Below are positions 4,033-50,349 of a DNA stretch of 64,000 nt, in pieces; positions within the stretch are counted from its first letter, which is position 1, and the number at the start of each line of letters is the position of its first letter. The position numbers and the translations under genes are program-made. The notes under the pieces were generated by a model. The model saw only the letters and a program-made list of their open reading frames with translations. It did not search any database and was not told the origin of the DNA. Source of the DNA: Eledone cirrhosa (lineage: Eukaryota); assembly GCA_964016885.1 (NCBI GenBank), contig OZ024741.1, positions 126,852,001-126,916,000 on the forward strand, given 5' to 3'.

Positions 4033-4080
4033 AAAATGACCGGTTTCGATGGGTCTGCAAAAGCCATCTTTTCAAATGTT
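4033..4080 (-). ncRNA. Type I hammerhead ribozyme, U3-A8 core variant
   Basis: Minus: aacat TTGAAAA gatgg-11nt-ccatc GAAA ccgg TC atttt. Stem II is a perfect 5 bp, stem III is the palindrome ACCGGT, stem I has one mismatch. Confidence 0.7.
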
Positions 4081-4576
4081 GATTAATATTAAGAAAAATT
4101 AATAATACGAAGAGTTAAAATTTGAGACTTGAAAATTCAAGTATAAAATTCATTGTGGGATTTCATAGCAGTTTTCATCTTGGTAGCAACAACAGGTTGA
4201 CTGCTGTGTCCCTTTCTGGTAGTGAATGAGAAGTTATTTGGGGTGTGGGTTATTTTATAAAGGTCAGATTTAGCAATCGCCAGCTGCTGGTCAGTGAGGG
4301 GGTGGAAGCAATATACATACACATATCTTCCTGTGATGGGTAGGAGAGTGGAGCGTGATAGAAAGGGATTTAGTGCACTTACACCTATATATACACACAT
4401 ACCTTCATCCACACATACATACATATACATATACATATATATATATATATGTAGGAGGTGAGTTTTATTGTAGTACAATAAAGCAATGCAGATATCGGAT
4501 AAGAAGCACTCTACAGTTTGTGGGACTGGAGTATGCATAATATAAGATCAAAAGATGGTTAAAGGAGTTCAATATA

Positions 4577-4643
4577 TTTTATTATGCGCATTTCAAAAAC
4601 AAACATCATCAAACAATAATATTTGTGTTTTCATCAGATAAAA
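4577..4643 (-). ncRNA. Type I minimal hammerhead ribozyme
   Basis: ttttat CTGATGA aaac...gtttt t GAAA tgcgca TA ataaaa. 6-bp stem I, palindromic stem III. Confidence 0.85.
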
Positions 4644-4833
4644 CAGGAGAACATGATATGAAGGCTAAAAAAACACTTGTTGATAGTGCAGTTTTAAATC
4701 AACATGATATGTTTTAAATCAACATGTTTTAAATCAACATTGTTGATAGTGCAGTTTTAAATCAACATGATATGTTGATTTAAAACTGCACTATCAACAA
4801 GTGTTTTTTTAGCCTTCATATCATGTTCTCCTG

Positions 4834-4900
4834 TTTTATCTGATGAAAACACAAATATTATTGTTTGATGATGTTTGTTTTTGAAATGCGCATAATAAAA
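4834..4900 (+). ncRNA. Type I minimal hammerhead ribozyme (inverted copy of 4577-4643)
   Basis: ttttat CTGATGA...GAAA tgcgca TA ataaaa read directly on the plus strand. Confidence 0.85.
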
Positions 4901-5576
4901 TATATTGAACTCCTTTAACCATCTTTTGATCTTATATTATATATATATATATATATATATACATATACACACATACATACACACACACATACATATACAT
5001 ACACACATACACACACACACATATATATATACACATACACACACACACACATATATATATATATATATATATATACACACACACACACATATATATACAT
5101 ATATATACACATACATCCAGATACACACATACATACACACACACACACACACATATATATATATATACACACATATATATATATATATATATATATATAT
5201 ACACACACACACACACACACACACACACACATACATACACACACACACACATATATATATACATACACACATACAAACATACACACACACACACACACAT
5301 ATATATACACACACATATATGTGTGTGTATATATATGTGTGTGTGTGTGTGTATACACACACACATTTTCATCTTAAGGACAAGATGAAAACACACACGC
5401 ACATAGACCAAACAACCAACCAGTAACATGTAAATAAACAAATAAATAAACGAATATAAACACACACAGACACCCGGATGTAACACATGCGCAAACTAAG
5501 CACACAACACACACAAAAACAAGATGGCGTAGGACAGAACAAAGGAGAGGCACAAAAACAAAGAAAAGAATCGCCA

Positions 5577-46335: not shown

Positions 46336-47449
46336 TGAGTATTACAATTAAAAACAATTAATAAGAATTAAAAGTTAAAGATTTAAATTAAGTGTTGAGG
46401 TAAGATTTTTTCATCTTCCTTGTTGAGAAGGAGACTGGAAAATGAACTCTTGTGTATATATAGAGAGGTGTCAGTCATGATAGTAGCAGCAGCAGTGTTG
46501 GTAGGTGTGTTTTTTTCACATAGAACAAAATTGTTTTTAGGGACAAGGAAAATATTCTTTAAATATGTGTGTGTATCTCAATTGTGTTAATGGACTGGTC
46601 AAGAGTTCAGGTGGGCCACGGGAGGAATTGTAAGATAGAGACAAATTCTATGGGATTAGCAACAGTAGGGTTGAAATTCTATTTTTGGAATATGGTTTTA
46701 GAGAGTGTGTGTGCGTGTGAGAGCGTATATATAAAAAAAATATACACGTGTGTGTGTGTGTGCGTGTGTGTGGAGGGATGTTGTGTGTGTGTTTGCGCGT
46801 GTGTGTGGAGGGATATTGTGTGTGTGTGTGTGCGTTATCCTGACTGTCACAGGTCTCTTTGTGGTGCGAAATTAAAAAAGACAGAGCAAAGTATCAGTGG
46901 TGGCTTTCAATCAGCAATTTTTGGAAAATATGTGTATGAGCATTTTTTTCTCTTATTTCGTGGTGTGTGTGAGAGAGAGAGTGAGTGTCTGTGTGTGTGT
47001 GTGGGGGGGGGGGGGGGTAGAGAATCTAATGGGAGTGATTATATATTTAATTTTGGTTTAAATTTGTTAATAAATAGTTTTTCTTTGTTTATTCTTTGTT
47101 GTTGAGTGAAAGAATCGGGGCACTTGTAAAGCGGGGAGATTTTAAAGTTGGGTAGAGTCTGCAATGTGGCTACTTAAGGGGATCTTTCTTGTGTTTAAGT
47201 CTCGGATTTATTGGCGATGGATGGTCATTCTTTTGCGTAATGACACACCCACCTGTAGTTATGTCGACAGCCACCGCATGTGATTACGTAGATCAGGTTC
47301 TCTGAGTTACAAGTGAAGTTGTTTTTCACTGTGAAAGTTTGGCCATCTCTAACGTGAATATTTGTCCTTCAATTAAGTACAGGCATGTGACACAGGTTAT
47401 TCTTTCGCATTTTGTTACCGTAAGGCTGGAGATTGGTTTGTCGATCTTT

Positions 47450-48088
47450 GTTCCCGTGAGAATGTGTTTTGGTGATTTGGGTTGCCTTTTACTTTTGTTG
47501 ATCTTGTGTTTCTAGGATTTTTTTCATTTTTTCATCCTACTAAAGTCTTCTACTGTAGCTGGTTGTATTTGGTTTGTGTTGAGTGGGGTTTTGTCTGTGG
47601 TTTGTGTGTGTTGGGGTTGGTAGTATGAATGTTTCTGTGGGGTTCTTGTTTTGTTTAATTTCTTTATAAAGTGGTTATTTGCGTGATGTGTTGTTTTGAA
47701 ATCCACTTCATATTTAAGGAACCAATTTTCAGATTTTTAATGAAATCGTTTAGTGAAATTAGTTCTGCATTCTCGCAGTCGTTTCCAGGATTTAATCTAA
47801 TCTTGTAGGGCTGGTCTTCAATGCGTTTAGCACATTCTATTTCCATTTGTTGGTAAACATCCTGGTATTTTTGTTCATTGCAGATGGCTCTTAATTTTAA
47901 GAGTTCTATTTCCATATTCATTTTGTTGAGTGACATTTGTTCTCGTAGTTTCCTTTGTTGTTGAGGTTCATTAGTTATGGGTTTTATTTGGATTTTACGG
48001 GGTAAAATTAGTGGTGTAGAGTTCTATCTTTCATAAATACCAGCTTTGTTCATATTTTTCACCATATTCCAAAAAGTGAAATTTCTTG
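47450..48088 (-). pseudogene. Decayed ORF of unknown family (helical/coiled-coil-like) upstream of a U3-A8 hammerhead
   Basis: RNFTFWNMVKNMNKAGIYER*NSTPLILPRKIQIKPITNEPQQQRKLREQMSLNKMNMEIELLKLRAICNEQKYQDVYQQMEIEC..., then frameshifted ENWFLKYEVDFK. Protein-like composition in non-repetitive DNA. Confidence 0.55.
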
Positions 48089-48155
48089 AATATATATATA
48101 TATATATATATATATATGTGTGTGTGTGTGTGTGTGTGTGTGTGTAAATATATAC

Positions 48156-49197
48156 AGTAGTATGGACGTAAACAAGAGAAGAAACCCTTCATCAGCTGTT
48201 AACTGTGATCATAGATGTTTCGGCGCTTAAAACAAGACATCGAAATCGATCAGCAGCGTGCCCAAGGCCATTTATCAATCAAAAGGCCATGAGGGTAAGA
48301 TAAGAAAAAAATAGTAAAGCGAGAGGAAGAAAGAGGAAAAACGAAGTAAACAAACCGAATGGAGGGGGCACCTAGGACAATGGCACGTGCAAGTGAATAA
48401 CTGAGGAGAAAATAGAATAAGTTACAACGAACCGATTAGACTTAAGTCTAACTGCGGAGCGGTGTTTTTCCGTGCGATCTCAGCAAAGTGACTGTAGAGA
48501 GGAAGCGAAAGACGGAGAAACCGGAAGTGAGAGGGGGAGGGGAAAGGGAGATAATCCAAAAGGGTTTTACGTCATGTGTAAAACACGGGGGAAAACGAGC
48601 AGATAGATAGAGAGAGAGACAGAGAGAGTGAGAAAGGGGAGAGAGAGAAGGAGAGAGTCGATATGAAAGCATGGTGGGACTACAAATCGAGCAAAACAGG
48701 TAAATACAAGAAACGTAGCGAGTTGGGTGGTTATTGTAAACAAAGTGTAAGATAGTAATATGGACGTAAACAAGAGAAGAAACCCTTCATAAGCTGTTAA
48801 CTGTGATCTCCGCAGTTATTTGACCAACAAGACTTAGTCTAATCGGTTCGTTGTAACTTATTCTATTTTCTCCTCGATTACTCACTTGCATGTGCCGTTG
48901 TCCTCTGCCCCCCCCCCCCCCCCCCCCACCTTCCATTCGGCTTGTTTACTTCATTTTTCCTCTTTCCTTTTTCCTCTTTCTTCCTCTCTCTTCACTATTT
49001 TTTCTTTTCTTTCCTTCGTGGTCTTTTGATCGATAAAAGACTTTGGGTGCGCTGCTGATCGATTTCGATGTCCTGTTTTAAGCGCCGAAACATCTATGAT
49101 CACAGTTAACAGCTGATGAAGGGTTTCTTCTCTTGTTTACGTCCATATTACTATCTTACACTTTGTTTACAGTAACCACACAGCCGGCTACGTTTCT
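48156..49197. mobile_element. Non-coding element: about 598-nt unit with a 54-bp terminal duplication, plus an inverted partial copy
   Basis: 48156-48209 is repeated at 48754-48808. 48830-49197 is the reverse complement of 48447-48156 and 48760-48708. Flanked by microsatellites. Confidence 0.8.
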
Positions 49198-49249
49198 TAT
49201 ATATATATATATATATATATATATATATATATATATATATATACATATA

Positions 49250-50349
49250 TTTAAAAGAATAGAGGTGTAACACACGTGTTATGATATATTGGTAAAAGGA
49301 AAAGAAAATGCTGACAAATTGTTTCAGTGAAAAATAGTTTAATTAGGAATAAGTAAAAATTAGTAGTAAGTATTGGTTAGTATTCAGTTTTGGTTTTAAG
49401 TTTTTACCGGTTGCACATTTCTAATGCTTTTCAAAAATAATTTTGAGATAGAGTGCCCGTGATGTTTGCTCTAATCTGATTAGTTTTGGAAATTCTACCT
49501 GTTTTATGTGAAAAAAGTGGCTCCAGATGTATTAAAATAAGTTTCGCGCCAATTCGTGTTGCAAAAATTCTTGTGGTCAAAACAATTTTGATTGGTCGGT
49601 AGAGGACATGTGAATGTTAAAAATTGATTTTGCGCCAAATGTAGGTTTGTCTCGGTTGATTGAGAAGTCACTGAAAAATAAGTCTTTCAAGACAAATATG
49701 TGTGTGTGTAGTAGTAGTAAAGAGGTTCATTGTTGTGATAATGGTCAGTAGGGATGTGTGTGTGAATTGCAGTCATATTGACAGGTCAACAGTTCAGGTG
49801 CCTATTAAGACAAGTGTGTAGTGTGTGTGTGTGTGTGTAGCAGAGTAATTCGTAGTAGAGGGATCGGTCAGTAGAAATGTGTCTGTATGTGTGTGGGCGA
49901 TATTTTAACATGTTAAAAGATATTTCTCAGCTCTTGTCTTATACGGAGAAGTGTGTGTGTGTGTGTGTGTGTGTGTGTGTGTGTGTGTGTGTGTGTGTGT
50001 ATCTCTCTTTGTGTGTTAGTGTACGCGTGTGTATGTGTGTGTATATATGTGTGTGTGTATATGTGTGTGTGTGGGGGGACCAGTATTTTTGTGATACTGG
50101 TAAAAATGGTGTACATTATTCGATATTTTCAGTAAAAACGATTCTCTCAATAGAACATCAAAAATCTTAATAATAAAAATAATAAAAATAATAAAAATAA
50201 TAAAAATAATAAAAATAATAAAAATAATAAAACTTAAAACCAAAACTGAATACTAACCAATACTTACTACTAATTTTTACTTATTCCTAATTAAACTATT
50301 TTTCACTGGGAACAATTTGTCAGCATTTTCTTTTCCTTTTACCAATATA
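49250..50349 (-). mobile_element. U3-A8 hammerhead family element with an inverted terminal segment
   Basis: 49284-49404 is inverted at 50229-50349. Related to 16670-17100 (AAAAAGTGGCTC, TTTCGCGCCA blocks). Confidence 0.7.
49401..49437 (-). ncRNA. Degenerate U3-A8 hammerhead
   Basis: ttt TTGAAAA gcatt aga aatgt GCAA ccgg TA aaaa, with A13 mutated. Confidence 0.55.

Follow-up and report, generated by a model that had tools for sequence, protein, structure and literature searches.

The 64,000-nt stretch of the Eledone cirrhosa genome analyzed here (contig OZ024741.1, positions 126,852,001 to 126,916,000; hereafter the window, in a host genome of 3.0 Gb) contains hammerhead-like motifs whose core reads UUGANAA in place of CUGANGA, with U and A at core positions 3 and 8 (U3-A8). 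The question raised by this locus is whether such cores are an inherited, working variant of the hammerhead ribozyme or the remains of canonical copies, and which elements carry them. The motifs are probably type I hammerheads whose U3-A8 core is inherited and which occupy the 3' ends of Penelope-like elements, and they are predicted to cut themselves slowly and only as pairs.

All eight UUGANAA cores listed in an earlier note on this DNA can be found in the sequence, offset by 5 to 82 nt from the positions given there. Those positions denote the lower boundary of each motif rather than its core; seven of the eight motifs are on the minus strand. Every motif follows the type I hammerhead order of helix I, UUGANAA, helix II, the GAAA box (GCAA in family E), palindromic helix III, residue 17 and helix I. 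The note had counted eight copies of several families, and five families (A to E) can indeed be recognized; however, these are not eight independent events, since the copies within A and within D are identical. Family A (core UUGAAAA) includes the identical copies 1 at 4036..4077 (-; U3 4075, A8 4070, C17 4038), 2 at 13107..13148 (-; U3 13146, C17 13109) and 3 at 14438..14479 (+; U3 14440, C17 14477), listed in the note as 4033, 13104 and 14435, with a helix I of 2 bp, a helix II of 5 bp and a 6-nt palindromic helix III. Family B (UUGAUAA; note position 46290) is represented at 46292..46333 (-; U3 46331, U17 46294), where helix I has 2 bp and the window copy carries G10.1A. The family C hammerhead (UUGAAAA) at 16809..16846 (-; U3 16842, A17 16813) has helices I and II of 4 bp each and a private G12U change. 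Family D (UUGAUAA) has a downstream copy at 36569..36656 (-; U3 36651, C17 36574) and, 591 nt from it, an identical upstream copy at 37160..37247 (-; U3 37242, C17 37165), with a helix I of 5 bp, a long helix II and a 10-nt palindromic helix III. The hammerhead-like motif of family E (UUGAAAA; note position 49401) is located at 49402..49437 (-; U3 49434, A17 49405), and shows a family-wide A13C change (GCAA for GAAA) together with C11.1U in the window copy.

The helix sequences differ between the families while the pairing is kept, as the note had proposed. Helix I has 3 bp in E, all of them A-U pairs; helix II has 4-6 bp and is closed by G10.1-C11.1 in the majority sequence of every family. 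The A15.1-U16.1 pair, a non-G residue 17 and the palindromic helix III are found in all eight window copies, and G12, A13 and A14 are intact in six of the seven copies of families A, B, C and D, the exception being the C copy. The bare UUGANAA heptamer occurs 75 times in the window and is uninformative. The whole fold is beyond chance, because a strict descriptor, which left positions 3, 7 and 8 free but required a G-C pair closing helix II, a palindrome in helix III and 2 bp or more in helix I, matched five U-A motifs in the 64-kb window, against a single motif (all core types counted) in 3.0 Mb of dinucleotide-shuffled sequence. No hammerhead family was present among the best 150 of 276 Rfam matches, a listing swamped by microsatellite matches. 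Canonical CUGANGA hammerheads also occur in the window, for example at +4840, -4637, -22357, +42604, +63510 and +24228.

The family counts indicate that U3-A8 is the inherited family state and not a product of decay, and that single mismatches are the later decay of dead copies. In these counts, the first 100 listed matches are the first places on contig 1 and not random draws. An A/B/C-type pattern that allowed Y at position 3 and R at position 8 gave 17,725 matches in the genome and 146 in the control, and the first 100 listed comprised 99 U3-A8, one U3-G8 and no C3-G8. The family D pattern, with both positions free, gave 5,922 matches (control 0; 99 U3-A8 and one U3-G8 among the first 100 listed), and the family E pattern gave 3,961, with U3-A8 in all of the first 100 listed. 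The 40 scored matches of family A (of 786 candidates) were identical over 141 nt. Family B is older, with about 89% identity between copies; its alignment tally showed U3-A8 in 30 of 32 other copies, A3-A8 in one and U3-G8 in one. U3-A8 is the majority state in all five window families, and about 28,800 exact-pattern U3-A8 motifs were found in the genome. A CUGANGA consensus had been named in the note as the sign of decay; the consensus proved to be U3-A8, with no C3-G8 among the first 100 listed for each family pattern. Two further statements of the note agree with the data. Positions 3 and 8 do change together between families, and in each of the seven U-A families examined the two positions match in the consensus; and CUGANGA-based descriptors do miss the U3-A8 motifs.

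Three of the eight window copies (16809, 46290 and 49401) carry further lesions beyond U3-A8 and fail the strict descriptor. In family C the G12U change is private to the window copy, as 35 of the 37 distinct sites in the retrieved genomic loci keep G12, and G is near-fixed at position 12 in all four sequencing runs examined. In family B, G10.1 is kept in 29 of the 32 other copies and replaced by A in the window copy. The A13C change of family E was found in 99 of the first 100 listed of the 3,961 matches and in 26/26 matches of another E pattern; it is probably derived, because one listed E copy keeps GAAA. The C11.1U change was found at 2 of 29 sites, and the 40 best scored E copies resemble that of the window at 98-99%. 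Another core variant that is family-wide and very abundant was observed in a C3-G8 family with the core CAGAAGA (U4A), which is carried by 41/41 matches in the window and the retrieved loci, 16 of them lying in a 1-Mb blind sample. In the window its cores start at -59754, -63039, +16574 and +21639, and its host is a Hydra-type element at 59685-63266 with pseudo-long terminal repeats (pseudo-LTRs) 97% identical. Moreover, the minus strand of L205 holds a well-paired hammerhead with a CCGACGA core (U4C) at a single site, about 1.25 kb behind the endonuclease end at 6966.

Sequence comparison assigns the hammerheads of families A, B, C and E to the 3' pseudo-LTRs of one Neptune-type Penelope-like lineage, in trees that hold only rows from this genome, and the four families probably count as one evolutionary event. 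Inverted pairs of A flank an open frame of 777 residues with a reverse transcriptase (RT), a CxxxxCxxC linker and a CCHH-type GIY-YIG endonuclease. Pfam RVT_1 and GIY-YIG were matched in the Neptune-type proteins, and the motifs of the A protein (C-terminal GIY-YIG with CCHH, CX2-5CxxC linker) agree with the Neptune rows in Fig. S2 of PMC8557442. The full-length A copy L032 has 4,670 nt between two sense hammerheads, with an inverted copy in front. The C and E proteins are 55-58% like A and the B fragments 75-88%; among the pseudo-LTRs, alignments at 73-75% join A to B and C to E. In all four families the hammerhead is on the sense strand, about 0.8-1.25 kb behind the endonuclease end. The copies end in (TA)n, 5' truncation and inversion vary, and pseudo-LTR tandems occur. 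A Neptune-type relative with a U3-A8 core, 58% to A, was also noticed at L209:2500-3200, where a U.U mismatch closes helix II. A metagenome scan for Neptune-type relatives gave one weak locus among 124 candidate stretches.

The window holds five such insertions. A 5'-truncated A element at 3875..4447 (-) consists of the 3' end (pseudo-LTR), ends in (TA)n and is 98% to L032. The fold-back A insertion at 12946..14587 is composed of two 5'-truncated 3' ends joined head against head in inverted orientation, with 542-nt arms (98%) and (TA)n at both outer ends, and it holds hammerhead copies 2 and 3. The 3' part of a C element is located at 16645..17875 (-; 97% to L338). An old B element at 46179..48086 (-) retains broken RT/GIY-YIG remnants, including an endonuclease piece at 47245-47490, 913 nt upstream of the hammerhead. 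The E insertion at 49232..50350 has its 3' end on the minus strand and a short inverted piece at 50228-50350.

These data bear on two other explanations of the motifs. One takes the copies as decayed CUGANGA hammerheads or chance AT-rich heptamers. The 75 bare heptamers and the lesions in three of the eight copies would fit it; however, thousands of near-identical copies share U3-A8, C3-G8 is absent from the first 100 listed for each family pattern, and the shuffles gave a single strict match, so that this explanation is refuted and keeps practically no probability. The other takes the long inverted repeats around the motifs as terminal inverted repeats of a DNA transposon or a miniature inverted-repeat transposable element, with the palindrome as a DNA-level transposase site. 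The 542-nt inverted arms at 12999-14587 and the many inverted pairs genome-wide recall such elements, but the inner junctions differ from copy to copy, the bodies encode RT and GIY-YIG, tandem pseudo-LTRs are present, and the layout is the anatomy published for Penelope-like insertions in the available text of PMC8557442; this explanation is likewise refuted and deserves next to no credence.

The Penelope-like hammerheads with inherited U3-A8 are likely not of a single origin. Family H (L325-L332, G000:C1), outside the window, has an 8-nt palindrome and 1,246 matches, of which the first 100 listed included 94 U3-A8 and no C3-G8. Its hammerhead is found about 300 nt behind a Hydra-type endonuclease with a CxCX5C linker, no CCHH, and CxxC and CxH around conserved E and N, a signature that fits the Hydra clade as described in the accessible text of PMC8557442. 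All H copies that were read lack their 5' part; at 62072-62851 of the window, a relative with 44% identity shows RWR and DKT, where the N-terminal motifs of the clade are RWK and DKT. The RT of H is 20-27% like those of A, C and E. In a 15-row RT tree, which like the other RT trees contains only rows from this genome, H falls among the Hydra-type rows, and a single clade of the four U-A rows was rejected (p-AU 8e-5). Among the 25 Hydra-type endonuclease ends scanned, H included, six are followed by C3-G8 hammerheads. These suggest that U3-A8 arose more than once, the likely events being one in the common ancestor of A, B, C and E and a second one in a Hydra-type family. Such a double origin would be the simpler view, given the canonical cores of the published Neptune and Hydra elements, as far as represented in the available parts of PMC4209133 and PMC8557442. 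Some observations speak against this. No match at the scan threshold was found at 18 of the 25 Hydra-type ends, and one of the seven matches looks spurious; the Hydra-type links between open reading frame and hammerhead are drawn from distance alone; and the labelled rows need two changes on the best tree but one on 7% of the bootstrap trees, while the starred branches force only one. The "variant lineage" of the earlier note was right as to an inherited variant and probably not as to a single lineage, since the Hydra-type H is also U3-A8. Two more Hydra-type RT/endonuclease remnants lie in the window at 7800-9790 (-) and 22400-23950 (+), the latter with C3-G8 hammerheads in tandem behind it (at +24228, with a damaged copy near +24648).

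The share of U-A cores was estimated from a position-blind sample of 100 evenly spaced 10-kb stretches (1 Mb), using a looser descriptor with fixed U4 and GAAA. The 3/8 combinations were C-G 34, U-A 19, C-A 2, C-U 1 and A-U 25, all 25 A-U matches coming from one satellite (L214). The same descriptor gave 11 matches of all kinds in 3.0 Mb of shuffles, and two of the 19 U-A matches look like chance. U-A accounts for roughly a quarter to a third of the sampled hammerheads, a share that is approximate as the descriptor misses family E and the U4A family (its 16 sites are in this same sample). C3-A8 as a natural family state was rejected for the best C-A match, a private U3C inside the U-A family I, where U3-A8 holds at 14 of 15 distinct sites. 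Family I (L280-L294) is older and gave 27 strict matches; its U3-A8 hammerhead combines a helix I of 7 bp with a long outer stem and a 10-nt palindrome. Further single odd pairs in the sample are C-A at L216 and C-U at L163.

Family D is a non-coding tandem element. Its insertion at 36494..37278 (-) holds 1.3 units of 591 nt inside (TA)n. Genomic D units are spaced 591-595 nt, with one type I hammerhead each and up to five in a row, and no frame of 150 codons was found. The D insertions include partial tandems, an inverted 5'-truncated copy and a fixed 3' end in (TA)n, the same anatomy as Penelope-type insertions. The D loci L038-L067 gave no match to two Penelope-type proteins, and a partner element was not found, the likeness of D to the pseudo-LTRs of A, B, C and E being at chance level only. 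A closed contig of 620-621 nt round the whole D unit was obtained from two runs; it was rejected as an RNA circle, because family C appeared at similar low depth in the same runs, which fits DNA traces, and because tandem DNA yields the same loop.

How the hammerheads might work was approached through computed folds. Dimers formed via the palindrome gain 6-14 kcal/mol over two monomers. The unconstrained minimum-energy dimer folds of C and D contain helices I and II and an intermolecular helix III. In the computation, the double-hammerhead fold of D coincides with the dimer minimum, and that of C lies within 1.4 kcal/mol of it. By known hammerhead chemistry, two copies would pair through the palindromic helix III, and U3-A8 would stand in for C3-G8 to hold nucleotide 8 in the active site. 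The 2'-OH of nucleotide 8 is the general acid in the hammerhead; G12 would serve as the base, with cutting expected after nucleotide 17. A tandem read-through transcript would then yield unit-length RNA (4,670 nt in the A copy L032, 591 nt in D), which may circularize. In A, B, C and E the unit RNA would be pasted into (TA)n by the element's own RT/endonuclease, and in D by one borrowed in trans. Families C and D are the best candidates for cleavage, the case for A and B is weak, and E has likely lost all or nearly all of this activity; function is in doubt in E because of its A13C, and in A and B because helix I has only 2 bp.

Several results count against working U3-A8 hammerheads. The double-hammerhead fold of A, B and E lies 11-16 kcal/mol above the dimer minimum (a rough figure with no tertiary terms), and the minimum fold of A buries the core. 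Family E reached about 4,000 near-identical copies with A13C. In the screen of PMC9901934, only a G-C swap gave rescue in the construct used, and U-A gave none; the literature is divided, however, as PMC3088659, in its available text, calls U3-A8 active in vitro on another paper's authority. A minimal hammerhead is described in PMC4209133 as having low activity, and only as multimers. In the accessible text of PMC11167929, hammerhead mutants had no effect on insertion of the lizard Poseidon element in vitro, and cleavage is protein-assisted.

The motifs might instead be former hammerheads that are no longer enzymes, with U3-A8 as a tolerated weakening, the hairpin and palindrome kept as a signal for RNA pairing or protein binding, and the core drifting by family. 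Family E would exemplify this, having amplified with a fixed A13C while retaining helix II and the palindrome, and the 2-bp helix I of A and B and the U4A in 41/41 matches of a separate, abundant C3-G8 family point in the same direction. Cleavage is also dispensable for insertion in vitro, and the Naiads spread without canonical hammerheads (as reported in the available parts of PMC11167929 and PMC8557442, respectively). However, the 3/8 complementarity has been kept across proteins only 55-58% alike, and again in the Hydra-type family; no mismatched consensus occurs in the seven U-A families; and every family majority retains G12, A14, A15.1-U16.1 and a residue 17 other than G. Without selection on the active fold, lasting at least into the recent past, the kept core and 3/8 pairing are difficult to account for, and the loss of enzyme function throughout is considered unlikely, although still a serious contender. 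A more speculative view, which we regard as rather improbable, is that U3-A8 represents a recurrent convergent down-tuning (Neptune-type and Hydra-type here, Cercyon in Schistosoma) on a path to the loss of catalysis, in which the palindrome is kept while the core slides (the 2-bp helix I of A and B, A13C of E, U4A of the sister C3-G8 family); the genome would then hold a natural series from active ribozyme to non-cutting pairing signal in still-active retroelements. The reading as inherited, slow, pairwise-cutting hammerheads is retained here as the probable one.

Other repeats of the window include a long interspersed nuclear element at 32360-35187 (+) that encodes an AP endonuclease, an RT and, behind these, a PHD finger; a single stop and a frame boundary interrupt it. 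A dispersed repeat family of about 190 nt, similar in size to short interspersed nuclear elements, occurs at 1066-1254, 18518-18706, 26325-26513, 28470-28858 and other places.

U3-A8 as a signature of a retroelement family, of which the note knew no case, is not new. U3-A8 Penelope hammerheads have been published since 2014, and the window families are further members. In the available part of Cervera and De la Pena 2014 (PMC4209133), about 1,300 U3-A8 Penelope hammerheads are described from the Cercyon elements of Schistosoma mansoni, which the authors' first descriptor had missed; Fig. S3 lists both UUGAUAA and UUGAAAA cores. As far as that text goes, the Cercyon hammerheads share with those analyzed here the type I order, the location in pseudo-LTRs, the family-level U3-A8, the same two heptamers, the G10.1-C11.1 closure and the palindromic helix III, and they too are missed by the canonical descriptor and are mostly solo copies. 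However, the hosts here are Neptune-type and Hydra-type, the palindrome has 6-10 nt instead of 4, and no extra base follows A9. In the literature and supplements searched, U3-A8 was not found in Neptune or Hydra elements; Lunse et al. 2017 and supplement file 1 of PMC4209133, outside that search, may hold cases. The addition made here is one of scale and of a test set, with about 28,800 exact-pattern motifs in one genome against about 1,300, in at least two distant Penelope-type groups. Censuses made with CUGANGA descriptors undercount hammerheads of the U3-A8 type. Moreover, young families side by side (the intact C and D, the weak-helix A, and E with A13C) offer a direct test of whether Penelope-like elements need hammerhead cutting.

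Other known systems resemble particular families. In the available text of PMC4209133, the hammerheads of Drosophila virilis Penelope and its relatives are similar to A and B in having a helix I of 2 bp and a palindromic insertion in helix III, and Penelope is likewise a recently active family with high sequence identity; whereas the cores there are C3-G8. The Saccoglossus kowalevskii (1) row of Fig. S3 of that paper is a Penelope-linked hammerhead with a U3-G8 wobble core (UUGAAGA). Natural U3-A8 cores were also reported by Perreault et al. 2011 (PMC3088659), where the 3/8 covariation was read as compensatory; however, the examples in its available part are few and are not described there as a Penelope family signature. 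Family D is comparable to the metazoan non-LTR retrozymes (Cervera and de la Pena 2020, PMC7229834; bioRxiv 10.64898/2026.07.22.740005, in their accessible text), which also have non-coding tandem units with one type I hammerhead each, and for which dependence on Penelope-like enzymes is proposed, as it is for D. Family D, known here from DNA alone, differs from these retrozymes in its U3-A8 core, in its dispersed short tandems with 5' inversions, and in its unit of 591 nt, whereas the retrozyme units have about 200-400 nt.

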